From the NCBI GenBank assembly GCA_030065975.1, contig JASJCN010000009.1:47-64046 (forward strand): a stretch of 64,000 nt of DNA. The letters run 5' to 3'. This document shows positions 7,349 to 64,000 of the stretch, one piece after another. The translations under genes and the position numbers were made by a program. This stretch comes from Myxococcota bacterium. Its GTDB lineage: Bacteria > Myxococcota_A > UBA9160 > UBA6930. The notes under the pieces are model-generated. The model had not been told where the DNA came from and did no database searches. It saw only the letters and a program-made list of their open reading frames with translations. Every line of letters starts with the position of its first letter. Positions within the stretch are counted from its first letter, which is position 1.

Positions 7349-8164
7349 ATGGCGAGCCGCTACGCGGCTCTGCGGGAGCGGCCGCGGGCTAGAATCCCCT
7401 CGATGGCGATGGATGCGGACGCGACGCTGATCCAGGCCTTCGATCGCCTGAGCACCGGCGTACTCGTTCTGGACGCCCAGGGGCGGGTGGTCCGCGCCAA
7501 TCCCCTGGCCGTCGCGATGCTCGACTCCTGCCCCGAGCTCTCGCTCGTGGACGAGCGTCTGGTCGCCACCAGCGCCGAGGTCGCGGACGCGATCGACGAC
7601 CGGATCCGCACCGTCACCCGTGTGCAGCCGATCCCCGCCCCGGCGAACGGAACCAACGGTCACGCTGCGAACGGCACCGCGAACGGGAAGAACGGCAGGC
7701 GCGGCAAGCCCGTGAACAGCGGCGACGCGGAGTTCCTCAAGCTGCTCGGCGACGAGCCGCACCAGACCCTGCTGCTGCGCTTCGTGCCGTCGAATCCAGA
7801 GCGGTCGGAACCGCGGCCGGTCGTCGAGCCCACGCGGCGCGACGCTCTCGTGTTCCTGAGCGACGGCCGCTCGGCCGTGGATCGCGAGGCGCTGCGCCAC
7901 GTGCACGGTCTGACCCGGGCGGAGGCCCAGCTCGCGTCCGGACTCGTCGCCGGCCTCAACCTCGCCGAGGCCGCGGCCAGTCGGGGCGTCGAGATCGAGA
8001 CGACGCGAACCCAGCTCAAATCGGTGCTGCGCAAGGTGGGCGCGCGCAGTCAGGCGGACCTCGTGCGCCAGCTGCTGACCGGCGTGGCACGGGTGAGCGA
8101 GCCCACCCTGGCCGAAGAGCCGAATTGCGCCCGGCAACAGGCCCGACGGCAGGCCGGTTCCTAG
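7349..8164 (+). CDS. LuxR/FixJ-type helix-turn-helix transcriptional regulator with PAS-like N-terminal region
   Basis: C-terminal part of the 624-aa track ORF. LTRAEAQLASGLVAGLNLAEAAASRGVEIETTRTQLKSVLRKVGARSQADLV is a LuxR-type HTH. In-frame ATG starts at 7349 or 7403. The upstream part of the track ORF overlaps the PilZ gene in another frame and is junk. Confidence 0.75.
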   Translation: MASRYAALRERPRARIPSMAMDADATLIQAFDRLSTGVLVLDAQGRVVRANPLAVAMLDSCPELSLVDERLVATSAEVADAIDDRIRTVTRVQPIPAPANGTNGHAANGTANGKNGRRGKPVNSGDAEFLKLLGDEPHQTLLLRFVPSNPERSEPRPVVEPTRRDALVFLSDGRSAVDREALRHVHGLTRAEAQLASGLVAGLNLAEAAASRGVEIETTRTQLKSVLRKVGARSQADLVRQLLTGVARVSEPTLAEEPNCARQQARRQAGS

Positions 8165-9519
8165 GCGCCGCTCTCCGAGCCCACGCCCGCAAAGCGCTGT
8201 ACGGCTTCGTCGCGGCAGACGCCCTTCGGGCAGAAGACGGCTTTCAGCACCTCGGCCGAGACCTGGCTCGCCGTGAGCCAGTAGAGATCGCTCTGCACCA
8301 CCACGCTCGCGACGACGATGCGCGGCGCCTCGGCGGGAGCGGCACCGACGAACCACTCATAGCGCCCGTCGGGGTCGCGGCCCGAGAGACTCCCGGTCTT
8401 GCCGGCGACGCGGATGCCCTGGAGCAGCGGATGGCCGCGGCGCGTGCGGAACGCCTTGCGCGCGGTGCCGCGCCGGGTGGTCTCGGTCAGCATCTCGCGC
8501 AGCTCGCTGGTGAGCGAATCCGTGAGGACGCGCTCCTGTCGTTCGGCGCGAGGCAAAACCAGCGACCGCCCCGATGCGTCGGCGACCGCATCGAGCCAGC
8601 GGGGCTCGCGCAGGTATCCCGTGGCGATCACGCCACCGAGCTGGGCCGCGTGCAGCGGAGTGATCCAGGTGCCGTCGAGTCCGGAGCCGAGCTTCCCGAG
8701 GGCGAAGCGATCGCCGCGCGGTGCCTCGGCGTCTCCGGAGGCGTGCCCGCGGGTGGGGGGACGCAGGAATCCGAAGCGATCGATGGCGTCCAGCAGCGCC
8801 GGCTCGCCGATCCGATGCACCGCGAGCTGGGCGAAGCACTGGTTGTTCGACTGGGCCAGCGCGCGGCTCACGCTGATGCTGCGCCCGCTCCGCGGCGGAT
8901 CGACGCGTCGCGGAGAGAGGCGGTACGGATTTCCCACGTAGCGACAGGTCTCGTCGCCGATGCCGGGCTTGCGGTGCAGGGCGGCGGCCGCGGTCACCAC
9001 CTTGATGAGGGAGGCCGCGGGATAGCGGCGCGTGGGCGGAAAGCGCTCGGGATCGGTGGACACGTAGGCGAGCAGGCGACCCGACCACGGGTCCAGCACG
9101 ATCACGTGGCCGAGCTTCACGCGGCCGCGATCGAGCACCTTCCAGATCGCGGTGGTGAGATCGGGATCGAAGTGCGTCGAGAGCACCAGCGGACCCGGGA
9201 CGGCGGGATCCGGAGAGTCCACCGGGACGGCGCGCGGATCAATGCCGAGAGCCTCCCGGCCGGTGGGAACCGCCGCGAAGATCTCGTCGGGCACCATCGG
9301 CGGGGGCGCGGCCACGGGGGGCGGCACGGGTGCGACCGCGGGCGCCACGGCGGAGGGCGTGGGCTCATCGGAATCCGAGCCGCCCACGAGCGCTGCGGTT
9401 CCGCCCAAGAGGGCGAGGACGAAGAGCGCGATGGTGACGCGACCCCTCACGGTCATCCGGCGCCGCCGCGGAGCGGGCGGCGTCAAGGCGCCGTGCATCT
9501 TCCCCCGATAGATGGTCAC
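8161..9519 (-). CDS. Penicillin-binding protein, transpeptidase domain
   Basis: SxxK (ASLIKV), SxN (QSNN) and KTG (AGKTGS) motifs occur in order, with an N-terminal membrane anchor. A more likely start is the ATG at 9456 (MTVRGRVTIALFVLALL). Confidence 0.8.
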   Translation of the reverse strand: MTIYRGKMHGALTPPAPRRRRMTVRGRVTIALFVLALLGGTAALVGGSDSDEPTPSAVAPAVAPVPPPVAAPPPMVPDEIFAAVPTGREALGIDPRAVPVDSPDPAVPGPLVLSTHFDPDLTTAIWKVLDRGRVKLGHVIVLDPWSGRLLAYVSTDPERFPPTRRYPAASLIKVVTAAAALHRKPGIGDETCRYVGNPYRLSPRRVDPPRSGRSISVSRALAQSNNQCFAQLAVHRIGEPALLDAIDRFGFLRPPTRGHASGDAEAPRGDRFALGKLGSGLDGTWITPLHAAQLGGVIATGYLREPRWLDAVADASGRSLVLPRAERQERVLTDSLTSELREMLTETTRRGTARKAFRTRRGHPLLQGIRVAGKTGSLSGRDPDGRYEWFVGAAPAEAPRIVVASVVVQSDLYWLTASQVSAEVLKAVFCPKGVCRDEAVQRFAGVGSESGA

Positions 9520-9540
9520 GCGTCTCCAGCTCGCCCTGAT

Positions 9541-9638
9541 TTCACCGACCGGACTTCACCGACCGGACTTCACCGACCTGAGTTCACCGACCGGACTTCG
9601 CCGATCCGAGTTCACCGATCCGACTGCATCGACCGGAG
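9541..9638. repeat. Tandem repeat, 14-bp unit TTCACCGACCGGAC x7 (last copies degenerate)
   Basis: Read directly: units start at 9541, 9555, 9569, 9583, 9597, 9611 and 9625. Located between the nifU-like stop (9741) and the PBP gene start (9456-9519). Confidence 0.95.
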
Positions 9639-9740
9639 GCCGGCGACGGAATGTGAGCGACCGAACCGGGCTCGGAGTGAGGTGCCGGGTCGGGGGAGGC
9701 CCTGCACCGCGCTCGTGCGCACCCGGTCGCCCGCGAACCG

Positions 9741-10301
9741 CTAGACCGACACCACTTCCCGGACCTCGGGAACGGCCTCCTTCAATCGCGCCTCGACCGC
9801 CAGGCGCAGGGTGATCGAAGAGCTGGGGCAGCCCGCGCAGGCGCCGACCAGGCTCACGCGCACCTGTCCGTCCTCGAAGCCGACGAAGACGACGTCCCCG
9901 CCGTCCATCTCGACCGCGGGCCGGACCTCGCGCTCGAGCACCTCTCGGATGCGAGCGACCACGGAGTCCTCCGAGCCCGCCTCGACGTCGCCCTCGGCGT
10001 ACTCCGGGCCGAGCGCCGGCTCTCCGCTCGCGGCGAACTCCTTGATCGCCAGGACCACCTTGTCGGCGAGGTCCTGCCAGTCGAGGTCGGTGTCCTTCGT
10101 CACGGTCACGAAGTTGCCGGTGACGAAGACGCCGGTGACGCCGGGCACCGCGAACAGACGCTCGGCCAGGGGCGACACGGCGGCCGCGACCGGGGCGTCG
10201 AACTGGGCGGCGCGGCCGGGGGCCAGGGGCTGCGAGAGCACCCACTTCACGCTGTGCGGATTGGGGGTGCGCTCGGCATGCATGCGGAAATCGGGGTCCA
10301 C
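9741..10301 (-). CDS. NifU/Nfu-family iron-sulfur cluster scaffold protein (Nfu_N + NifU C-terminal domain)
   Basis: TPNPHSVKW...GVTGVFVTGNFVTVTK (Nfu_N-like) followed by VRPAVEMDGGDVVFVGFEDGQVRVSLVGACAGCPSSSITL (CxxC NifU domain). Confidence 0.85.
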   Translation of the reverse strand: MDPDFRMHAERTPNPHSVKWVLSQPLAPGRAAQFDAPVAAAVSPLAERLFAVPGVTGVFVTGNFVTVTKDTDLDWQDLADKVVLAIKEFAASGEPALGPEYAEGDVEAGSEDSVVARIREVLEREVRPAVEMDGGDVVFVGFEDGQVRVSLVGACAGCPSSSITLRLAVEARLKEAVPEVREVVSV

Positions 10302-11078: not shown

Positions 11079-11151
11079 GGCCCCACTCGATAACGAACCG
11101 GGCGCGGGGGCGCCTCGCTCTGCCGCGGGAGGCGCCCTCGGCGCTCCGGCC

Positions 11152-12434: not shown

Positions 12435-12730
12435 GGCCCCTCCGAGAGCAACGTCGGGTGTCGGATCTGCTGAGAGGACAGCTTCGGGGGCGACCGACCG
12501 CGAGACCCCGGGAACGACCCGGATCCTCGAGGCGGCAGCCCAATCATCGTCCGAAATCCCCCGGCTCACAAGCGCTCTGCCGGAGTCGGTGGAGTCGCTG
12601 GAGCCGCGAGCAGAGCGCCGGGAACGGCACACCCCGCCTCGTCTGTTCCGAGGCCCGGGGATGCCTTAGCATCGCGGCGGGAACAGAGGATCGCGTCGTC
12701 TTGGGCTGGATCGGATCGCGTGGAAGCCAG

Positions 12731-12797
12731 GGTGGGTTCGAGCCGGGTGCCTTCGAGCCGCGTGCCTTCGAGCCTGGTGCCTTCGAGCCGGGTTCGG
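12731..12797. repeat. Tandem repeat, 15-bp unit GGTGCCTTCGAGCCG, about 4.5 copies
   Basis: Units start at 12731, 12746, 12761 and 12776, with a partial unit at 12791. The array ends 13 nt before the response-regulator ATG, and the RBS GGAGG at 12801 follows directly. Confidence 0.95.
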
Positions 12798-12810: not shown

Positions 12811-13452
12811 ATGATCCGCGCCGTGATCGCCGACGACCACGGCATCGTTCGCGAGGGCCTGCGCAGGGTGCTCGAGGCCGAGGCCGACATCCAGGTCCTC
12901 GGCGAGGCGGCGGACGGCAACGAGGCCTTCCAGCTGATCGAGGACGAGGAGCCCGACGTGGCGATCCTCGACATCAGCATGCCCCGACTGGGCGGCCTCG
13001 ACACCCTCGAGCGGATGCGACGGCGCTTTCCCCGGGTTCGCGTGATCCTGCTCTCGGTCCACGGCGAGTCGTCGTTCATCCAGAACGCCGTGAACCTGGG
13101 TGCCGACGGCTACATCCTCAAGAACGGCCGGGCGGACGACATCGTCTCCGCCGTGCGCGCCGTGGTGAACGGGGGCAGCTACTTCAGCCCGCCGGTCGCT
13201 CGGGAGATCGTGCAGCAGATCCGCTCGCCAAGGACCGAGAGCGACGAGCCCTTCTCCACCCTGTCGCGACGCGAACGCGAGGTGCTCGGGTGGATCGCGG
13301 AGGGGCACTCGGCCAAGGAGGTCGGAAACGAGCTCGGCATCAGCCCGAAGACCGTCGAGGCCCACCGAACGCGCATCATGCGCAAGCTCGGCGCGCGCAA
13401 GGCGACCGAGCTGGTGCGCTACGCGGTGCGCCACGGGCTGATCGAGCCCTAG
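12811..13452 (+). CDS. NarL/FixJ-family two-component response regulator (REC + LuxR HTH)
   Basis: IADDH...DVAILDISMP (phospho-acceptor Asp)...YILK receiver domain, then LSRREREVLGWIAEGHSAKEVGNELGISPKTVEAHRTRIMRKLG. No histidine kinase is adjacent. Confidence 0.92.
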   Translation: MIRAVIADDHGIVREGLRRVLEAEADIQVLGEAADGNEAFQLIEDEEPDVAILDISMPRLGGLDTLERMRRRFPRVRVILLSVHGESSFIQNAVNLGADGYILKNGRADDIVSAVRAVVNGGSYFSPPVAREIVQQIRSPRTESDEPFSTLSRREREVLGWIAEGHSAKEVGNELGISPKTVEAHRTRIMRKLGARKATELVRYAVRHGLIEP

Positions 13453-19070: not shown

Positions 19071-19114
19071 GCCGGGGCCTCGGCGAGCCGCTGCTGTCTC
19101 ATGCCGGGGCCTCG
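19059..19114. repeat. Direct duplication of a 24-bp segment (CTGCTGTCTCATGCCGGGGCCTCG, period 32 bp) spanning the moeA-moeA gene junction
   Basis: Copies at 19059-19082 and 19091-19114, read directly. One copy holds the start codon of the downstream moeA and the other holds the stop codon of the upstream moeA. Confidence 0.9.
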
Positions 19115-20355
19115 TCGTAGAGGAGCACCTCGACCGTCTCGCCTTCCGGCATGCCTTCGCGCCCGCGCGGAACGATCACGGCGCCGGCCGCGCGCACGGT
19201 CGAGGACAGGATGGAGGCTCCGGCGGTCGCGATCGGCACCACGCGCCCCGACTCGATGGCCACCCGCACGTAGTCGACGCGCCCGATGGCGGAGCTGATC
19301 TTGCGGGCGAGCGGGAGCGTCGCGCGCCGGTGCGGCCACTCCCGGGAGCGTCCTCCAAGCGCGCGTACGCTCGGGCCGGCGAAGAACTCGTAGGCGCAAA
19401 GGCAGCTCACCGGATTGCCGGGCAGCAGGAAGGCGAAGCGCTCGGGCCCGCCCTCCGTGAGCGCGGGGAGTCGCCCGACGCCGGCGGGGCTCGAGGGGCG
19501 CATGGCGACGCCGTGGAAGTCGAGCCGGCCGAGCTCGGAGACGAGCCGTGGCGCGTGATCCTCGCGGCCCACCGAGCTTCCGCCGGAGACGAGGACCACC
19601 TCCGCCGGGGCGTCGCGAAGGGCGGCGCGGATCGCGTCCTCCCGATCCGGAAGCCGCTCGGTCAGGACCTCCGCGGCTCCGTCGCGGCGAGCCAGGGCCT
19701 CGAGCACCAGCGAGTTGCTGTCGACGATGTGGGCACCCGAGGGCCGGCTGCCCGGGGGCAGCAGCTCGTCGCCGGTGACGATGATCCGCACGCGCGGACG
19801 ACCGACACACGGGACGTCGGCCACGCCGATCGAGGCCAGCAGTCCGGCGTCCTGGGGACGCAGCCTCCGGCCGGCACGCAGCACCACGTCGCCGTTGCGG
19901 ATGTCCTCGCCCGGCGCACCGACGTTCTTGTGGGGCGCCACCGCATCCCGGACCGCCACCGAGGCGTCGCCCTCCTCGCACACCTCGGCCATCACCACGG
20001 CGTCGGCGCCATCGGGCACCGGAGCGCCGGTCATGATGCGCACGGCCGAGCCCGGCGTAACGCGGCCCTCGAAGGGACGGCCCGGCATCGACTCCCCGAG
20101 CAGCGCGAGGGCGAGCGGGTCGTTGGGAGCGGCGCCGAAGGTGTCCTCCCCGCGCACGGCGTAGCCGTCCATCGCCGAGCGGCGGAACGACGGGACGTCG
20201 ACCTCCGAGGCGACGTCCCGGGCCAGCACCCGCCCGGCGCACACGGCCACACCCACCGGCTCCGAAGGGAGCTCGGAGACGGTGCCGGCGAGGAAGTCGC
20301 TCACCTCCTCGACGTCGGCCCGTTCGGCGAAGCCGCGCATCCGGACGTCGCGCAT
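19099..20355 (-). CDS. moeA: Molybdopterin molybdenumtransferase MoeA
   Basis: 418 aa. DVPSFRRSAMDGYAVRG...RIMTGAPVPDGADAVVMAE...VSGGSSVGREDH is the full MoeA architecture. Confidence 0.9.
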   Translation of the reverse strand: MRDVRMRGFAERADVEEVSDFLAGTVSELPSEPVGVAVCAGRVLARDVASEVDVPSFRRSAMDGYAVRGEDTFGAAPNDPLALALLGESMPGRPFEGRVTPGSAVRIMTGAPVPDGADAVVMAEVCEEGDASVAVRDAVAPHKNVGAPGEDIRNGDVVLRAGRRLRPQDAGLLASIGVADVPCVGRPRVRIIVTGDELLPPGSRPSGAHIVDSNSLVLEALARRDGAAEVLTERLPDREDAIRAALRDAPAEVVLVSGGSSVGREDHAPRLVSELGRLDFHGVAMRPSSPAGVGRLPALTEGGPERFAFLLPGNPVSCLCAYEFFAGPSVRALGGRSREWPHRRATLPLARKISSAIGRVDYVRVAIESGRVVPIATAGASILSSTVRAAGAVIVPRGREGMPEGETVEVLLYDEAPA

Positions 20356-20409
20356 GGTCCTCCGATCCTGGGCTCGCCTGCTTGGGGTGAAACCGGGGTG
20401 AAACGCAAA

Positions 20410-20436
20410 GCGGGCAGGGGAGGACCCCCTGCCCGC
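20410..20436 (-). terminator. Stem-loop (11-bp perfect stem GCGGGCAGGGG/CCCCTGCCCGC) followed on the minus strand by TTTGCGTTT; intrinsic terminator or attenuator between aor and moeA
   Basis: Read directly. It lies 20 nt after the aor stop and is followed by the tandem GGGGTGAAAC x2 (20384-20405) and the moeA RBS. Confidence 0.5.
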
Positions 20437-20455
20437 CTCGATGGTCGGCTCGCGA

Positions 20456-22177
20456 TCAGCCCGAGGCCTTGGCCTCGAACAGATCGTCCTGAGCGGGCAT
20501 GCGCTGGCGCGCGGCCGCCACGATGTCGGCCGGCACGTCGAAGACCTGCCCGTTGATGGGATCCTTCGACAGGCACTCGGCCATCACGTCGTCGCTGGCG
20601 CCGAAGCCCGCGGCGTCGTTGAACGCCCACTCGTCGGCCAGGCACTCCCAGCCCTGGTCGTGGATCGCCTCGCGGCTGAACTCCTCGCCGTAGAGCGCGC
20701 CGTAGAAGTCCCGGATGTTGTCCAGGTTCGGCTGCAGGAACTGGCAGAAGCCCGAGGAGTCGCAGACCGCGTTCACGATCTGGACCTTCTGGGACTCCCA
20801 GGCGAACTGGTCGGGCTGCAGGCCCGGGTTCACGATCAGTCCCGCGGTGTGGTCGGCGCCCATGGGGCTCGTGCAGTAGGTCACGCCAGTGGCCTTGAGC
20901 GGCCGCGGATCCCAGGCCGGGATGGCCTGGCCCTTGGCGTGGGGCACGCGGTGGTGGCCCGTGAACTTGCCCGTGGCCACCGCGCCGTTGCCGATGGCCT
21001 TGCCGCGGTCGGTGAGCTCGGGGATCTCGGCGATCAGCTTCTTCATGGCCTCGGCGTCGCCCCACTCGAGCTGGCCGGCGTCCATCAGCACGGCGATGGC
21101 GGCGCCGGTCTCGATGGTGTCCAGGCCGACCTCGTCGCAGAGGCGGTCCATGTCGGCCACGTCCTCCCAGCTCGCGACCGCACAGTTGGCACCGAGCAGG
21201 GTGAGCGTCTCGAACTCGAGCGCCGAGGTCTTGTACTCGCCCTGGGCGTCGTGCACGACGTTCGAGCACTTCACGATGCAGCCGGTCATGCAGTTGTGCA
21301 TCTCGCCGCCGCGGGTCTCGAAGCTCTCGACGATGCGTGCGCCGTCGAGGGTCTGCGCGTCGGGCGACTGGCCCTCCACCCGGTTCTTGTAGGGGAAGGT
21401 GTGCAGCATGTTCGCGACGGGCACGACGGAGCTGGTGCCGGTCTTGAACATCTGGGGGCCGTCCAGGTAGTCCTTCGTGTAGGTCTTGCACAGCTCGCCG
21501 AACTTCTTGCGGTCCGAGGGCTGGCGCACGCTGGCGCGACCGGGGTCGACCATCACGTACTTGAGACCCTTGCTGCCCATCACCGCACCGAGGCCGCCGC
21601 GGGCCGCGTGGCGCGCCGGGAAGCGGTTGTCCTGGTCGGTCGTCGCGACCGAGGCGCCCGAGAGCCGGGCCTCGCCCGCCGGTCCGCAGGTGATGAAGGA
21701 GGCGGTCTTCGGATACTGGCCGTGGAGGTCCTGGCACAGGGTGTAGTTCCACTTGCCCTTGTGCGCGTCGGCCGAGGTGACGCTCACGCCGTCCTCGTTG
21801 ATCTCGACGGCGTAGCGCGCCTCGGCGTCGGACGGAGCGCCCTTCACGACGATCGCGCGGTAGCCGAGCTTCATCAGGTGCTGGCCCGGCTGGCCGCCGG
21901 TGTTCGCCTCCTTGATGCCGCCGGTGAGCGGGCTCTTCGCGCCGATCGAGATGCGGCCGGACGTCGGTGCGGCGGTTCCCGAGAGCACGCCCGGTGCCAT
22001 CACGAGCACGTTGTCCGGGCCGAGCGGATCGCACTTCGGATCGCAGTCCGCCGTGAGGATCTTGGCCGACAGGGCACGCCCGCCCAGCAGCTTCCATTCC
22101 TCGGGGAAGTCCTTCACCTCCGCCGTCTGGTTGGTCATGTCGACGTAGATGATCTTGTCGCCGCTCGGGCCGCTCAT
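20456..22177 (-). CDS. aor: Aldehyde:ferredoxin oxidoreductase (AOR) family tungsto/molybdopterin enzyme
   Basis: 573 aa. The N-terminal AOR_N region reads GGRALSAKIL...GPDNVLVMAPGVLSG...RISIGAKSPLTGGIKEAN. The 4Fe-4S Cys motif is HNCMTGCIVKCSN. The C-terminal AOR domains include DTIETGAAIA and SPMGADHT. Confidence 0.92.
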   Translation of the reverse strand: MSGPSGDKIIYVDMTNQTAEVKDFPEEWKLLGGRALSAKILTADCDPKCDPLGPDNVLVMAPGVLSGTAAPTSGRISIGAKSPLTGGIKEANTGGQPGQHLMKLGYRAIVVKGAPSDAEARYAVEINEDGVSVTSADAHKGKWNYTLCQDLHGQYPKTASFITCGPAGEARLSGASVATTDQDNRFPARHAARGGLGAVMGSKGLKYVMVDPGRASVRQPSDRKKFGELCKTYTKDYLDGPQMFKTGTSSVVPVANMLHTFPYKNRVEGQSPDAQTLDGARIVESFETRGGEMHNCMTGCIVKCSNVVHDAQGEYKTSALEFETLTLLGANCAVASWEDVADMDRLCDEVGLDTIETGAAIAVLMDAGQLEWGDAEAMKKLIAEIPELTDRGKAIGNGAVATGKFTGHHRVPHAKGQAIPAWDPRPLKATGVTYCTSPMGADHTAGLIVNPGLQPDQFAWESQKVQIVNAVCDSSGFCQFLQPNLDNIRDFYGALYGEEFSREAIHDQGWECLADEWAFNDAAGFGASDDVMAECLSKDPINGQVFDVPADIVAAARQRMPAQDDLFEAKASG

Positions 22178-22194
22178 TCCAGGGCTCTCCTCGT

Positions 22195-22218
22195 CCTGTT
22201 CCTGTTCCTGTTCCTGTT
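22195..22218. repeat. Hexanucleotide tandem repeat CCTGTT x4 (AACAGG on the coding strand), 18 nt upstream of the aor start
   Basis: Read directly. A fifth isolated CCTGTT lies at 22230-22235. Confidence 0.9.
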
Positions 22219-22295
22219 GGGATCCAGATCCTGTTCGGATTGGATCGCGTTCTCTCGGTTTGCCGGCGCCGCTCCCGCGGGTCCGGGCGAAGTGT

Positions 22296-22565
22296 TCAGC
22301 CGCCGGCGATGGCGGCGAGGATCTCGATCGAGTCGTCTTCGGACACGGCCACCGAGAGCACGTCGCCGTCGAGCTGCTCTCCGTTCTGGAACAGCTTGAC
22401 GAAGCGATGCACGGCGCCGTCGGCCGTCAGCACCTGGTCCAGGAACCCGGGGTACTTGCGTCCCACGGCTTCGAGGCACGCGAGCACGCTGTCGCCCTCG
22501 ACCACGATCTCGGCCGCTCCGTCGGTGGGGCCTCGGTAGGGGGGCGGAATCAGGACGGTGGGCAT
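22296..22565 (-). CDS. MoaD/ThiS-family ubiquitin-like sulfur carrier protein
   Basis: 89 aa from the ATG at 22565, ending in the diagnostic C-terminal Gly-Gly (EILAAIAGG). It sits directly upstream of aor. The rest of the 470-aa track ORF is junk. Confidence 0.8.
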   Translation of the reverse strand: MPTVLIPPPYRGPTDGAAEIVVEGDSVLACLEAVGRKYPGFLDQVLTADGAVHRFVKLFQNGEQLDGDVLSVAVSEDDSIEILAAIAGG

Positions 22566-22656: not shown

Positions 22657-22704
22657 GGAATCGACGGGGGAATCGACGAGGGAACCGACGGAGGACCACC
22701 GACC
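22657..22704. repeat. Tandem repeat, 12-bp unit GGAATCGACGGG, 3 good copies plus 1 degenerate
   Basis: Units at 22657, 22669 and 22681, with a degenerate unit at 22693. Located in the divergent promoter region between moaD-like (start 22565) and the 22749 gene. Confidence 0.9.
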
Positions 22705-23785: not shown

Positions 23786-24184
23786 CTAGACGCTCACCTC
23801 GTCGTGGCGCCACTTCTGCAGCACCGCCGGCTCGGACGAGGCCACGGCGCTCCCGCGCGTCGCGACGATCAACACGAGGCCGTCGTCTGCGACGAAGCCT
23901 CCCACCACCTCACCGAGGGACTCGTCGTCGAGGCGGCGGACCACCACGCCGATCAGTCCCTCGAGGTTGAGCGCGGTCGTGCTCACCTCGTCCTCCTCTG
24001 TGGAGACCGACGTCGCTCCGTCGGCGCGCGGCCGCCTGCGATGCATCGCCGACTCTCGCGCCGCGTAGGCGTGGGCGACGCGCTCGAGCGTCGAGGCGTT
24101 GGCATCGCTTGCCGTCTCGCTTCGAAGTTCCCTTCGAAGTTCGCTTCGGAGTTCGCTTCCGAGATCGCCGTCGGCTCTGCTCAT
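23786..24184 (-). CDS. Small hypothetical protein; C-terminal ~65 aa resemble a PRC-barrel-like beta domain
   Basis: High third-position GC in this frame. The C-terminal segment is NLEGLIGVVVRRLDDESLGEVVGGFVADDGLVLIVATRG. Start is ambiguous: ATG at 24184 (132 aa, including the SELRSELRRELRSE repeat) or GTG at 23986 (66 aa) preceded by a strong GAGGAGG. Confidence 0.45.
   Translation of the reverse strand: MSRADGDLGSELRSELRRELRSETASDANASTLERVAHAYAARESAMHRRRPRADGATSVSTEEDEVSTTALNLEGLIGVVVRRLDDESLGEVVGGFVADDGLVLIVATRGSAVASSEPAVLQKWRHDEVSV
24119..24166. repeat. Tandem repeat, 12-bp unit GCTTCGAAGTTC x4
   Basis: Units at 24119, 24131, 24143 and 24155, read directly. It is either the 5' leader of the small gene or encodes (S-E-L-R)n if the long start is used. 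Confidence 0.9.
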
Positions 24185-37593: not shown

Positions 37594-38002
37594 GCGCCGC
37601 CTTGCGCAGATCGGAGTAGCTCCGCTCCTTGGTGCCGACCTTCGGGGCGGCCGTCTTCGGGGCGGGCTTCTTCTTCGCGGCGGTCTTCTTCTTCGCCGCC
37701 GTCTTCTTGCGAGCGGTGGTCTTCTTCCTGGCGCCGGTCTTCTTGCGGGCCGCCTTCTTCGTCGAGGCCTTCTTCGTCGAGGCCTTCTTGCGCGTGGCGG
37801 TCTTCTTCCTGGCGGAGGTCTTCTTCTTCGCCGTCTTCTTCGTGCTCGCCTTCTTGCGGGCCGTCTTCTTCTTCGCCGAGGCCTTCTTCCGGGTGGCGGT
37901 CTTCTTGCGCGTCGCCTTCTTCCGGGCCGGAGCCTTCTTGCGGGAGGCGGTCTTCTTGCGGCCGGCGGTCTTCTTGCGGGTCGTCTTCTTGCGGGCAGCC
38001 AT
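37574..38002 (-). CDS. Histone H1-like lysine-rich repeat nucleoid protein
   Basis: 142 aa from the ATG at 38002. It is almost entirely (T/A)xRKK(T/A)(A/S) repeats: MAARKKTTRKKTAGRKKTASRKKAPARKKATRKKTATRKK... It ends in a short non-repeat tail, ERSYSDLRKAALSWLRL. The purine-rich RBS gagagggga lies upstream. Confidence 0.8.
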   Translation of the reverse strand: MAARKKTTRKKTAGRKKTASRKKAPARKKATRKKTATRKKASAKKKTARKKASTKKTAKKKTSARKKTATRKKASTKKASTKKAARKKTGARKKTTARKKTAAKKKTAAKKKPAPKTAAPKVGTKERSYSDLRKAALSWLRL

Positions 38003-42981: not shown

Positions 42982-43745
42982 GGCAGCACTCCGCCGCCGG
43001 CCTCGGGCCCGATCAGACCCTCGCGCTCGAGACGCTCGGCCTCGGCGAGGATCGCCGTCTCGCTGTAGGCGAGCATGCCGCCCACGATCTCGCGGGCGGC
43101 CTCGGGGTCACCGGCCTCGAGGGCCGTGAGGAGCTCGCGGTGGGTCTCGAGCGAGCGGCGGTGGTCCCGCGACTCGTTGTAGTAGATGGGGCCGAGGCGC
43201 CGGATCAGCCGACTGAAGAGGTTGGTCACCAGCTGGTAGAGGAGGTTGTGCGTCGCCTCTCCGAGCAGCCGGTTGAGCTCGACGTCGATGGCGAGGCTCT
43301 CGCCGGGGTCACGGGCCTGGGCACGCTCGCGCTCGAGCAGCGCCCGGCCGCGCGCGAGCTGCTCCTCGGTGCGGTGCTCGGCGGCGAGGGCCACGACCTC
43401 GAGGGTGATGTTGCGCCGGAACACGAGAAGCTGGGCCAGCAGGTCGCGCGTGATGCGGCGCGGCTCGCGCAGCAGCGATTCGATCACCTGGAGCGCCGCG
43501 GAGTCGCCGAGCTCCCGCACGAAGGTGCCGAGCCCGTGACGCACCTCGACCAGCTCCAGGAACTCGAGCCGCTTGACCGCCTCGCGGACCGACGCGCGGT
43601 TGACCGCCAGCTGCTCGGCGAGGTCGCGCTCGTTGGGCAGCCGCTCACCGGGCGCGTAGTCGCCGGCCAGGATGTGCGCGCGGAGCTGCTCGAAGACGCC
43701 GTCTGCGCGGCGCGGAGCTTCGAGCGGGCGAAGGGCGGTCTGCAT
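42978..43745 (-). CDS. GntR-family (FadR/FCD subfamily) transcriptional regulator
   Basis: GERLPNERDLAEQLAVNRASVREAVKRLEFLELVEVRHGLGTFV is the GntR HTH, followed by an FCD domain. ATG at 43745 has GAGGAG upstream. The stop/start overlaps glpD. Confidence 0.9.
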   Translation of the reverse strand: MQTALRPLEAPRRADGVFEQLRAHILAGDYAPGERLPNERDLAEQLAVNRASVREAVKRLEFLELVEVRHGLGTFVRELGDSAALQVIESLLREPRRITRDLLAQLLVFRRNITLEVVALAAEHRTEEQLARGRALLERERAQARDPGESLAIDVELNRLLGEATHNLLYQLVTNLFSRLIRRLGPIYYNESRDHRRSLETHRELLTALEAGDPEAAREIVGGMLAYSETAILAEAERLEREGLIGPEAGGGVLP

Positions 43746-43930
43746 GGGAGGGCTCCTCGAATCGGGACCTGTCCGGTTTCGACTTTCGGGTCCAACTTCC
43801 GGGCAAGACATCCGGGTACGACATCGGAGGTCCGACCACTGACTCTAACGCGCTCTCGAGCCCCATCAATCCGCCCCTGCGAGGCCACTTCCCCGCAGGG
43901 GCAAGCACCGCCGGCTAGCCTTGGCGGGTC

Positions 43931-55769: not shown

Positions 55770-55774
55770 GCGCC

Positions 55775-55830
55775 GGTGCATCGGTGCATCGGTGCGTCAG
55801 GGCGTCAGGGCGTCAGGGCGTCAGGGCAAA
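55775..55830. repeat. Tandem octamer array, 7 units grading from GGTGCATC to AGGGCGTC; the second half is a G3N5G3N5G3N5G3 G-quadruplex motif
   Basis: Units start every 8 nt from 55775. GGG runs lie at 55800, 55808, 55816 and 55824. Located between two convergent 3' ends. Confidence 0.95.
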
Positions 55831-55836
55831 TGGAAA

Positions 55837-55864
55837 GGGCCCACGAGCGCAAGCTCGCGGGCCC
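55837..55864. terminator. Hairpin GGGCCCACGAGC-gcaa-GCTCGCGGGCCC between convergent genes (bidirectional terminator candidate)
   Basis: Read directly. 11 of 12 stem positions pair and the tetraloop is GCAA. It lies 23 nt beyond the histone-like gene's stop. Confidence 0.55.
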
Positions 55865-55886
55865 TCAACCATCGAAGCCTGACGAC

Positions 55887-56335: not shown

Positions 56336-57100
56336 TCACTGCGCCGACTGGACGGCACGGGCGAGCGCGGGCAGGAGCGCCTCGAGCGGCTGCTCGAGCT
56401 TCCAGTCGCACTCGGAATCGAACGGAGTCTCGGAAGCGGTCAGGATCGCGGTGGCCGCACCACCGCTCCGCGCCAGGGGAAGCATCTGGTTGATCGGCCC
56501 GACGACGAGCGAGGTGCCGGCCGCGACGAAGAGGTCGCACGATTCGGCGGCGCGCATCGCGCGCTCGAGGTCGGCGGCGACGAGGCCCTGCCCGAAGGAG
56601 ATCGTCGCGGGCTTCAATGGGCCCCCGCAGGCACATTCCGGGGTCGCGACGCCGACCTCCCACTCCTGCTGAGCCGCTTCGCGGGGTGATCTCGCACCGC
56701 ACCCCATGCAGACGACCGCCGCGTCGCTGCCGTGGATCTCGACCAGCCGCTCCGCGGGCTGGCCGGCGCGGGCGTGGAGGCCGTCGACGTTCTGGGTCAC
56801 GAGCAGCTCGAGGCAGCCGGCGCGGGTCAGCTCCGCCAGGGAGAGGTGACCCGCGTTCGGCTGGGCGGCGGAGATCAGGGCCCAGGTCTCGCCCTTGTAG
56901 CGCCAGTACTCCTCCCGCGCGGCGCGCGAGGCCATGAAGTCCTGGATGGGGACGGGCTGGTAGCTCTCCCAACGTCCGCCGGGAGAACGGAAGTCGGGGA
57001 TCCCGGAGGCGGTCGAGAGGCCCGCCCCCGTGAGGACCACCACCGAGCGCGCCCCGCGCCAGTGACGCGCCAGATCCTCCAGACCTTCCAACCCTTCCAA
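56336..57100 (-). CDS. cobB: NAD-dependent protein deacylase, Sir2 family (sirtuin, CobB-like)
   Basis: [34 protein letters not shown] (catalytic His), the Zn ribbon CMGCG...[11 protein letters not shown] and [10 protein letters not shown]. The track start is a TTG at 57100, so the exact start is uncertain. Confidence 0.9.
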
Positions 57101-57177
57101 CCCGCTCCCCTCTCTGCTCCCCTCTCCCGCCAGATGCGGCGGGTCCGCGGCGAGGGTACCGCGCTACGTTCCCGAAG

Positions 57178-62912: not shown

Positions 62913-63941
62913 CTAGAGCAGCGTTTCGGCTAGAAGCTCGAGCGCCTCGGGCTGGCCGCCTCCGATCAGCATGTCGGTCACCGCCGACTCCTTCCAGGCG
63001 GCCAGGCGATCGACGATGCGCTCCTTGGGACCGACCAGCGCGATCTCGTCCACCAGGCTGTCCGGGATCGCCGCGACGGCCTCGTTCTTCTTGCCGTCGA
63101 GGTAGAGATCCTGGATCTGGGCGGCGTCGCCCTCGTAGCCGAGCCGGATGGCGTAGTCGTTGTAGAAGTTCTTGCCCTTGGCTCCCATGCCTCCGACGTA
63201 GAGCGCGAGCATCATCTTCACCGGCATCCGGCACTGCTCCACGTCGTCGCCGAGCACGCAGGTCACGAAGGGGGCGATGCGGAAGTCGTCCATGCCCTTG
63301 CCGCCGCCGGCCTTGGCGAAGCCCTTCTCGAGCGCAGGCTCGAAGATGTCCATGCGCTCGGGGTTCATCCACACGGGGATCAGGCCGTCGGCGACCTCGG
63401 CGCTGCACGCCACGCCGTTGGGGCTGATCGAGGCGGTGAAGATCGGGAGATCCGGGTTGCCGTGGAGGATGCTCTTGAGCGGCTTGCCGAGGCCCGTCGT
63501 CCCTTCGCCCGAGGCCGGGATGTCGTACATCGAGCCGTGGAACTCGAGCGGCCCTTCGCGCGCCAGGATCTGGCGGATGATCTTCACGTACTCGCGGGTG
63601 CGGGTGAGCGGCTTGCCGTAGGGAACGCCGTGCCAGCCCTCGACGACCTGGGGGCCCGACGGCCCGAGGCCCAGCAGGAAGCGGCCGCCCGAGAGGGAGT
63701 CCATGCTCATGGCGGTCATCGCCGTCATGGCCGGGGTGCGGCCGGGCATCTGCATGATGGCGGTGCCGAGCTTGATCGTGCTCGTCTGCGCGCCGATCCA
63801 GGCCAGCGGGCTGATGGCGTCGGACCCATAGGCCTCGGCCGTCCAGATGGAGTCGAAGCCCAGGTTCTCGGCGTGCTTGACGCGGTCGATGTCGACGGTG
63901 AGCTTGGCACCGGAGTAGCCGGTGAGGAGTCCGAGTCGCAT
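62913..63941 (-). CDS. LLM-class F420-dependent (luciferase-like) oxidoreductase
   Basis: GFDSIWTAEAYGSDAISPLAWIGAQTSTIKLGTAIMQMPGRTPAMTAMTAMSMDSLSGGRFLLGLGPSGPQVVEGWHG is typical of the F420-dependent LLM subgroup. Confidence 0.9.
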   Translation of the reverse strand: MRLGLLTGYSGAKLTVDIDRVKHAENLGFDSIWTAEAYGSDAISPLAWIGAQTSTIKLGTAIMQMPGRTPAMTAMTAMSMDSLSGGRFLLGLGPSGPQVVEGWHGVPYGKPLTRTREYVKIIRQILAREGPLEFHGSMYDIPASGEGTTGLGKPLKSILHGNPDLPIFTASISPNGVACSAEVADGLIPVWMNPERMDIFEPALEKGFAKAGGGKGMDDFRIAPFVTCVLGDDVEQCRMPVKMMLALYVGGMGAKGKNFYNDYAIRLGYEGDAAQIQDLYLDGKKNEAVAAIPDSLVDEIALVGPKERIVDRLAAWKESAVTDMLIGGGQPEALELLAETLL

Positions 63942-63956
63942 GGCGGGGTTCCTTCG

Positions 63957-64000
63957 ATGGGAGTGGCGCGATGGGAGTCGTGCGGTGGGAGTGGCGCGCG
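63957..64000. repeat. Tandem repeat, 14-15-bp unit GATGGGAGTGGCGC x3, continues to the window edge
   Basis: Units at 63957, 63971 and 63986, read directly. It begins 16 nt upstream of the LLM gene start (63941, minus strand). Confidence 0.85.

Follow-up and report, generated by a model that had tools for sequence, protein, structure and literature searches.

The 64-kb stretch of DNA analysed here (the window) carries in its small non-coding fraction many more short tandem arrays than either shuffled sequence or the corresponding loci of related bacteria would lead one to expect, and the units of these arrays are all different from one another. The strongest short-period array detected in the window by Tandem Repeats Finder (TRF) is a 14-bp array at 9541, which lies upstream of a gene for a PBP-type transpeptidase. 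On the evidence of this one window and about 3 kb of flanking sequence, we consider it probable, at roughly 0.7, that the arrays are locally born tandem duplications, akin to VNTRs or minisatellites, which serve no sequence-specific function.

Tandem arrays in the non-coding DNA of the window

The window has a G+C content of 70-74% throughout. Gene calls based on GC3 and codon statistics made 90.6% of it coding, and after adjustment with the gene calls of other assemblies and inspection of open reading frames the non-coding part came to 8.7%. The other assemblies of the same species were ENA ERZ23486730 (scaffolds L025, L106 and L108), GCA_013332805.1 (contigs L026 and L107) and Logan SRR11343838 (contigs L111 and L112); sequence identity with the window and among themselves is 99.3-99.9%, and they represent two to three strains, possibly from one sample.

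TRF arrays were merged and compared with dinucleotide-preserving shuffles made segment by segment. With a score of at least 40, there are 13 arrays in non-coding DNA and 17 in coding DNA, where the shuffles lead one to expect 0.62 and 9.5; at a score of at least 50 the counts are 7 and 4 (0.18 and 2.7 expected), and at a score of at least 60 they are 5 and 1 (0.02 expected in non-coding DNA). The array load of coding DNA therefore exceeds chance only a little, one Lys-rich protein excepted, and the binomial probability of the concentration in non-coding DNA is 1.2e-6 to 4e-5 across the score cut-offs. Summed, the arrays cover about 560 bp, or approximately 10% of the non-coding DNA of the window. 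The suspicion that a small intergenic fraction holds an unusual number of arrays is thus borne out by the 13 arrays seen against 0.62 expected.

What marks bacterial VNTRs, head-to-tail copies beyond chance expectation and a mainly non-coding location with the reading frame kept where genes are affected, is found here on both counts: the strongest array has 6.9 copies of 14 bp, 13 of the 30 arrays scoring at least 40 lie in the roughly 9% of the DNA that is non-coding, and the period is divisible by three in 13 of the 17 coding arrays. It is divisible by three in 7 of the 13 non-coding arrays as well, against one third expected, a difference that is not significant (P about 0.1), and a few of these might sit in unannotated coding sequence.

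The arrays listed in the original prediction are all present (Table 1), although several details needed correction. What had been taken as a single array of seven 8-bp units at 55775 is really two different 8-mers that abut. At 43761, where six degenerate units of about 12-13 bp had been proposed, TRF supports only the 2.2 copies of 13 bp at 43798-43825, and the remainder is a loose CGGG-N9 periodicity. The repeats at 20384, 57084 and 57104 exist but have just about two copies each, and the non-coding status of the array at 24117 is ambiguous because it lies inside a 132-aa open reading frame according to the gene caller of two other assemblies. Likewise, the view that nearly all arrays lie in upstream or intergenic DNA holds insofar as the non-coding enrichment is strong, but it overlooked arrays in coding sequence at 37640-37996, 14702, 10103 and 52980.

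Table 1. Coordinates of the tandem arrays of the window and of the genes and spacers next to them.
Feature	Position	Strand	TRF score	Details
PBP-type transpeptidase gene	8161-9519	-		Pfam PF00905, E 1.7e-26; downstream of the 14-bp array
nfu-PBP spacer	9520-9740	-		221 nt; about 95 nt without the 126-bp array
14-bp array, core	9541-9638	.		7 copies of TTCACCGACCGGAC; gene-strand reading GTCCGGTCGGTGAA; copies 1, 2 and 4 identical
14-bp array, two older degenerate in-register copies	9639-9666	.		7/14 (9639) and 10/14 (9653)
nfu	9741-10283	-		Nfu_N + NifU, Pfam PF08712 + PF01106; upstream of the array, on the PBP strand
Array-type polymorphism site	11126-11148	.		L026 has about 42 extra bp, including a tandem duplication of CCTCGCTCTGCCG; scaffold gap in L025
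15 bp x 4.5 array	12725-12793	.	101	GAGCCGGGTGCCTTC; divergent spacer; 17 nt before the NarL-type gene
NarL-type response-regulator gene	12811-13452	+		Pfam
11 bp x 1.9 repeat	20384-20404	.	42	Between the AOR and moeA genes
Aldehyde:ferredoxin oxidoreductase (AOR) gene	20456-22177	-
6 bp x 4.2 array	22188-22218	.	50	Gene strand (ACAGGA)x4 + CGAGGA; 10 nt before the AOR ATG
MoaD-like gene	22296-22565
12 bp x 3.2 array	22657-22695	.	57	GGAATCGACGGG; divergent spacer
12 bp x 3.6 array	24117-24168	.	72	TCGCTTCGAAGT; 5' leader or N-terminal (SELR)n of a hypothetical gene
13 bp x 2.2 repeat	43798-43825	.	42	Within the looser CGGG-N9 periodicity (about 43761-43840)
Two abutting 8-bp arrays	55774-55827	.	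44, 68	(CGGTGCAT)x2.8 + (GCGTCAGG)x4.2; convergent 3'/3' spacer
9 bp x 2-3 and 12 bp x 1.9 repeats	57070-57126	.	40, 46	Divergent spacer between SIR2 and threonine-aldolase-like genes (Pfam)
Luciferase-like monooxygenase gene	62913-63941	-
14 bp x 3.1 array	63955-63998	.	67	CGATGGGAGTGGCG; divergent spacer; 13 nt before the monooxygenase start; full extent and far side of the spacer taken from L108

Within the window, the arrays follow the available non-coding sequence rather than the 5' regions of genes. Five of the 13 non-coding arrays lie in tandem (co-oriented) spacers and six in divergent ones, and the two others in convergent 3'/3' spacers, a class that accounts for 9% of the non-coding bp. 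In several cases the array stops shortly before the Shine-Dalgarno sequence, with 10-28 nt left up to the start codon, and this proximity is striking by eye, but random placement within such short spacers gives as much (Fisher P 0.45). The emphasis originally placed on upstream regions therefore reflects where non-coding DNA lies and is not a property of the arrays. Gain or loss of units that close to a start codon might plausibly affect a leader or promoter. The genes adjacent to arrays encode the PBP, a NarL-type response regulator, MoeA, AOR, a GntR-type regulator, SIR2, a threonine-aldolase-like lyase and a luciferase-like monooxygenase, which are functionally unrelated, and no contingency-gene theme was found among the array-adjacent genes of the window. 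The gene for the GntR/FadR-type regulator (at 43745; Pfam) is downstream of the repeat at 43798-43825.

We also considered whether hairpins that stall replication might have nucleated the arrays. A strong hairpin (-27.3 kcal/mol) adjoins the repeat at 20384, and the arrays at 55774 sit between a stop codon and another (-29.1 kcal/mol), but over the 13 non-coding arrays the stability of the flanks is that of other non-coding DNA (P 0.21).

The source organism is an uncultured Myxococcota bacterium. The best relatives of the genes of the window are in Myxococcota/'Deltaproteobacteria' MAGs, at 44-63% protein identity, and the synteny of the window with Myxococcota MAGs is conserved and chromosomal. 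With arrays defined by at least three copies, a period of 5-20 and a score of at least 50, there are 8 in the 64 kb here as opposed to 9 in the approximately 956 kb of about 100 syntenic loci of related Myxococcota (Poisson P 2.5e-7), which corresponds to 12.5 and 0.94 per 100 kb, a density some 13 times higher here. This is a known kind of VNTR load, but in a phylum for which no prior description was found, as a literature search for tandem repeats in Myxococcota gave nothing relevant.

The 14-bp array between nfu and the PBP gene

The core of the 14-bp array has the anatomy first ascribed to it, that is, seven tandem units of which the first, second and fourth are identical and the later ones decay, and the TRF result (9541-9637, period 14, 6.9 copies, 83% matches, no indels, score 124) agrees with an in-register listing. 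Copies 1 to 9 match TTCACCGACCGGAC at 14, 14, 12, 14, 10, 12, 11, 7 and 10 of 14 positions, and because a match of at least 10/14 is found for only 0.07% of all 14-mers of the window, we extended the array to 9666. The full array thus covers 9541-9666, or 126 bp, with about nine copies. Decay is one-sided, as the 14/14 copies are PBP-proximal and the copies at the nfu end match at only 7-10 of 14 positions, and this gradient, which is what growth in steps combined with ageing by mutation should produce, suggests that the PBP-proximal copies are the youngest and that the array grew at its PBP end. In a scan of the window that allowed up to two mismatches, the 14-mer was matched only inside its own array. 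Its copies are contiguous, and the unit contains at most CCGG as a palindrome.

The PBP product is membrane-anchored and has a transpeptidase domain. GTG 9519, with GGAG ahead of it, is the likely start and yields the 452-aa form called in three other assemblies; the alternatives are ATG 9498 and ATG 9456. These starts are 21-22, 43 and 85 nt from the array, respectively, in agreement with the 22-85 nt given originally.

A same-strand nfu gene is found upstream of the PBP gene in 88 of the 108 related loci that were fetched. In 80 relatives, the spacer between the two genes has a median length of 70 nt (interquartile range 48-85, maximum 155), and none of the 80 has a comparable array in it, the best being a two-copy match with a score of 66. 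The part of the spacer that remains here once the array is taken out is inside the length range of the relatives. Because the spacer is about 70 nt long in array-free relatives and 221 nt here, the array appears to be a recent lineage-specific insertion that explains the extra spacer length. Its age is only loosely bounded, since the nearest relatives found are 61-63% identical in the PBP protein and there is no genome at an intermediate distance among them.

Neither a sigma-70-like promoter nor an intrinsic terminator was found at 9200-10000, and inspection by eye for sigma-54- or ECF-like motifs was unconvincing, so a promoter inside the array was set aside as a candidate. A structured or known RNA at the array was likewise rejected: there is no Rfam match at gathering score anywhere in the window, and the RNA folds of the whole spacer (z-score against shuffles +2.4) and of the array (+0.9) are no better than those of shuffled sequence. 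The long hairpin that follows nfu was considered as its terminator, but with a z-score of -1.1 it is equalled by 28 of 200 shuffles. Because this hairpin is no better than shuffled sequence, separate transcription of nfu and the PBP gene cannot be claimed. The two genes are probably co-transcribed. The array would probably just lengthen, with unstructured sequence, the intercistronic or leader segment that precedes the PBP ribosome-binding site. Regulation of the PBP gene by a new mechanism is not supported by the present evidence.

Strain differences, origin of the arrays and competing explanations

The 14-bp array is base-for-base the same in L025, L026 and L111, so that, with the window, four assemblies show no length variant. 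The 15-bp array at 12725 is also the same in L026 and L112, and in L025 it falls in a 100-N scaffold gap. Other arrays do vary. At 22657 there are three units in the window and in L107, and two units with variant bases in L106. At 24117, L107 has a C-variant one unit further along, which appears as a pair of SNPs at 24131 and 24143, exactly 12 bp apart. Within a gene, a 9-bp in-frame tandem duplication at 7707 distinguishes strains. Three of the four multi-base differences between strains are unit-level events; the remaining one, a 3-bp indel at 12636, is not associated with any obvious repeat. In ERZ23486730, moreover, each of the three internal 100-N gaps, and also one contig end, falls on an array (11126, 12760-12792, 22657 and 55794, the last of these being exactly where L108 terminates), which is the pattern that heterogeneity among reads would give. 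Among two to three strains that may come from one sample, differences are seen at 22657 (in copy number), at 24117 (a unit rearrangement) and at 11126 (an insertion that includes a duplication), but not at the 14-bp array. The latter is not visibly hypervariable at a divergence of about 0.1-0.7%, and its invariance fits slow neutral turnover and also fits selection holding the array in place.

In the model that we favour, a short stretch of spacer would be duplicated through slipped-strand mispairing or microhomology template switching in the course of replication or repair, and the resulting direct repeat would gain or lose units through further slippage or unequal exchange as its older copies aged by point mutation. 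The species would produce or keep such arrays far more than its relatives do, and selection would clear them from coding DNA unless the reading frame were kept; it is because of this purging that arrays would build up in the roughly 9% of the DNA that comprises 5' leaders, intercistronic spacers and 3'/3' gaps. At the nfu-PBP locus, some 126 bp would have been added to a spacer of about 70 nt (its length in relatives), with growth at the PBP end. We infer both that slippage is the molecular process and that the arrays are nearly neutral. The original prediction had offered, as one of two possibilities, a process of slippage or expansion that is particular to the lineage and eliminated from coding DNA, and this possibility has fared well: the roughly 13-fold density, the diversity of units, the absence of a spacer array from 80 relatives and the gain or loss of units between strains all point to it.

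The other possibility was a regulatory use, as iterated binding sites, as modulators of promoter spacing or for phase or rheostat variation. It is tempting to speculate that the arrays are evolvable tuners of expression, whose gains and losses of units shift the spacing of promoters, leaders or ribosome-binding sites and so provide reversible, heritable rheostat or phase variation at many genes. The majority do lie in 5' regions, and for several of them the start codon is 10-28 nt away; unit number or order differs between co-occurring strains at the three loci described above; the scaffold gaps and contig end of one assembly fall where heterogeneous reads would put them; and in front of the AOR gene the (ACAGGA)x4 array duplicates an AGGA that resembles a Shine-Dalgarno sequence. 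We nevertheless regard this explanation as unlikely. Once the amount of non-coding DNA is allowed for, no preference for 5' regions is left, two of the arrays are found in 3'/3' spacers, and proximity to start codons is not above chance. The genes concerned are housekeeping or metabolic ones and not the surface, restriction or virulence genes of contingency loci, and units of 8-15 bp far exceed classic phase-variable tracts. The 14-bp array, for its part, is constant in four assemblies and has no sigma-70-like promoter near it. A regulatory use of the kinds first envisaged thus does not follow from the pattern, given that there is no 5' specificity or start proximity, that the unit is unique, that the genes are unrelated and that the copy number of the 14-bp array is constant; judged from sequence, such a use gains no support, though a side-effect on the length of leaders or the spacing of promoters may occur.

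Cooperative binding of a transcription factor or nucleoid protein to the 14-mers, in control of the PBP gene and with the other arrays serving other regulators, seems very improbable. Direct repeats are common in response-regulator and iteron-type binding, and two arrays precede genes for regulators (NarL-type at 12811 and GntR-type at 43745), a position in which sites for autoregulation are to be expected, but the unit is absent from the rest of the 64 kb, each array would need a separate dedicated factor, a 14-bp period is out of helical phase and the copies decay from one side instead of being held to a consensus. Neither the recurrence of the motif in the window scan nor the conservation among the 80 relatives sharing the nfu-PBP pair that would point to iterons was found. 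Poor folding, no better or even worse than that of shuffled sequence, argues against a repeat RNA working as leader element, protein sponge or regulatory RNA, as do the lack of any Rfam match, the non-conservation of the arrays and the fact that their units have no common strand composition relative to the downstream gene. We hold such a role to be very improbable, even though the array is probably transcribed, as it lies between two genes of one orientation that in relatives are too close together to leave room for both an independent terminator and a promoter, and even though the intergenic repeats of Borgs have been proposed to be RNAs (PMC9879509). Finally, assemblers are known to go wrong at tandem repeats, and one of the assemblies is broken at several arrays, but the 14-bp array is shorter than a typical read and is the same in four assemblies from different pipelines, and five non-coding arrays score at least 60 where shuffles predict 0.02. 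The concern that the arrays might be assembly artefacts finds no support at the 14-bp array, which is the same in the three other assemblies of the species, and misassembly or chance similarity can be regarded as a negligible prospect.

A more far-reaching extension of the preferred reading of locally born duplications is that the species has acquired a genome-specific propensity to form repeats, through altered replication or repair or a slippage-prone polymerase, that makes the leader and spacer lengths of many genes, including that of the transpeptidase, continuously adjustable, with some of the variation being used adaptively. We regard this as a rather long shot. If it were true, the propensity would be a bacterial chromosomal counterpart of those of Borgs and of B. 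pseudomallei, and about 10% of the intergenic DNA would be filled with young, population-variable arrays. Should the pattern hold genome-wide, it would offer a natural case for the study of how tandem duplications are born and removed and of the repair and replication genes that set the rate. The arrays also have practical consequences in that they break short-read assemblies of this organism and are potential strain markers, by VNTR typing, in metagenomes.

Comparison with known repeat systems

In phase-variable contingency loci, such as those of Haemophilus, Neisseria and Campylobacter, units of 1-7 nt lie in open reading frames or between the -35 and -10 elements. Such loci act on surface, restriction-modification and virulence genes and switch at high frequency. 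The arrays described here resemble them in being tandem repeats near gene starts with a copy number altered by what is probably slippage, but differ in that short units, placement in open reading frames or between -35 and -10, surface or virulence genes and frequent switching were not observed here. The 14-bp array in particular has a 14-bp unit, spans 126 bp of a spacer, has no sigma-70-like promoter and shows no length variant in four assemblies.

Intergenic tandem repeats of 6-11 bp are over-represented in particular prokaryotes, including archaeal and bacterial genomes (Huang & Mrazek 2014, PMC4060949). In Xanthomonas and Nostoc, one G-rich heptamer with G-quadruplex potential is found genome-wide, near the 3' end of the neighbouring open reading frame (Rehm et al. 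2015, PMC4692102). Like these cases, the present one combines a lineage-specific excess in intergenic and not in coding DNA with length variation, at some arrays, between close relatives and no link to pathogenicity genes. Unlike the Xanthomonas and Nostoc heptamers, the arrays here have no shared motif and no positional preference. Indeed, each array has its own unit in contiguous copies, which is not what characterizes dispersed single-motif families (MIRU, STRR/heptamers, REP/BIME, CRISPR).

Borg repeats, which are found in archaeal linear elements, are perfect, A-rich and at least 50 nt long, and about half of them lie in open reading frames, where they give rise to disordered protein regions (Schoelmerich et al. 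2023, PMC9879509). The likeness to the arrays here is in their genome-specific formation and near-absence from relatives, in units that are unique to each locus, and in an independent origin, with arrays that differ between close relatives. In both, the unit lengths of intergenic arrays are free of the multiple-of-three constraint that binds genic ones. Of the Borg characteristics, then, genome-specific, locus-unique formation is found (12.5 versus 0.94 arrays per 100 kb), whereas perfect A-rich repeats in open reading frames or on extrachromosomal elements are not: the setting here is a bacterial chromosome with housekeeping synteny, and the arrays are GC-rich, imperfect (83-100% identity), mostly 20-100 bp long and almost all non-coding.

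The VNTRs of B. pseudomallei and B. mallei (U'Ren et al. 2007, PMC1853098) have motifs of 3-16 bp, mostly of 6-9 bp in B. pseudomallei, in 4-21 copies, and occur at densities of 70-102 arrays per Mb, with about 70-75% of the arrays being intergenic. In B. pseudomallei, the motif length of most genic arrays is a multiple of three, arrays vary between strains with high measured mutation rates, and about 36% of arrays share their motif with another place in the genome (PMC1853098). The arrays here differ in that every unit is unique within the window, in that most units are of 8-15 bp and in that the 14-bp array is invariant in the available strains. The overall range of unit sizes, the intergenic bias and the frame rule in genes are nevertheless alike, strains differ at some arrays in both, and B. 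pseudomallei, like the present host, is a high-GC, large-genome environmental bacterium. By the criteria of U'Ren et al. (at least 4 units, at least 30 bp and at least 80% similarity), there are four non-coding arrays in the 64 kb here, or about 62 per Mb, and the arrays of the window are probably best read as a lineage-specific VNTR load whose density resembles that of B. pseudomallei.

Assembly breaks and strain differences at tandem arrays

In the ENA assembly ERZ23486730, which is from the same species as the window, the internal 100-N scaffold gaps lie exactly on tandem arrays (3/3; see table), as does one contig end, that of scaffold L108, which stops at window position 55794. At the gap at 22657, the same 55-nt flank is repeated on both sides. 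Taken together, the gaps and the contig end at arrays suggest copy-number heterogeneity in the reads.

The spacer between two minus-strand genes contains a site at 11126-11148 that is polymorphic among strains, where CCTCGCTCTGCCG is single-copy in the window whereas L026, a contig of GCA_013332805.1 from the same species, has about 42 bp of extra DNA (about 8347-8394) made up of a tandem duplication of CCTCGCTCTGCCG and a short inverted repeat. Strains are likewise told apart at 7707, within the coding region of the plus-strand gene 7403-8164, by a 9-bp in-frame tandem duplication, the alleles being GGCAAGCCC in the window and GGCAAGCCCGGCAGGCCC in L026.

Features referred to in the text, in window coordinates unless a locus is named
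Feature	Position	Strand	Remark
moeA	19099-20355	minus	
Aldehyde:ferredoxin oxidoreductase gene	20456-22177	minus	
MoaD/ThiS-like gene, small	22296-22565	minus	89 aa
Hypothetical gene, extended form	23786-24184	minus	from the gene callers of two other assemblies
100-N gap at array	L025 4862-4961		
100-N gap at array	L025 6578-6677		
Position matching the 11126 site	L025 6578-6677		
100-N gap at array	L106 9806-9905		
14 bp x 4.6 array	L019 5225-5303		about 700 bp upstream of PBP gene
9 bp x 8 array	L034 6518-6589		at contig end

Arrays beside and within genes

The co-oriented MoaD/ThiS-like, aldehyde:ferredoxin oxidoreductase (AOR) and moeA genes form a tungsten/molybdenum-cofactor cluster (19099-22565), two of whose intercistronic gaps contain tandem repeats. 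The gap that follows the MoaD-like gene holds a hexamer array (22188-22218) that reads (ACAGGA)x4 + CGAGGA on the gene strand and lies immediately 5' of the AOR gene's GGAG Shine-Dalgarno sequence and start codon ATG, so that a Shine-Dalgarno-like AGGA motif is multiplied five times at 6-nt spacing. At 55774-55870, two 8-bp arrays with unrelated units directly adjoin one another in a convergent spacer, with the stop codon of a plus-strand gene on one side and, on the other, a strong hairpin (GGGCCCACGAGCGCAAGCTCGCGGGCCC, -29 kcal/mol); both arrays thus occupy 3' UTR or terminator DNA.

The top Tandem Repeats Finder signal of the whole window (37640-37996, score 254), in which periods of 15, 18, 51 and 81 are nested, lies in coding DNA: its minus-strand gene (about 37632-38002) specifies a Lys/Thr/Ala-rich, histone-H1-like repeat protein whose sequence includes MAARKKTTRKKTAGRKKTASRKK. 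The 12-bp array within 24117-24184 would encode (SELR)x4 in the 132-aa extended form of the hypothetical gene. Its GAA and CGA codons are atypical for the genome and its GC3 is 0.5; it could be non-coding DNA drawn into the gene by a mistaken extension, or else a coding repeat that arose very recently.

The nfu-PBP pair and arrays in relatives

Among Myxococcota-like loci (window 8161-10283; L001-L105), nfu is followed on the same strand by a transpeptidase-only PBP gene in 88 of 108, the two genes lying close together (median spacer 70 nt), and this conservation suggests an operon joining Fe-S cluster delivery with a cell-wall enzyme. Isolated multi-copy arrays of unrelated units occur in a few distant relatives, including L019 and L034, and array formation is thus not confined to the window's species, only much more frequent there.
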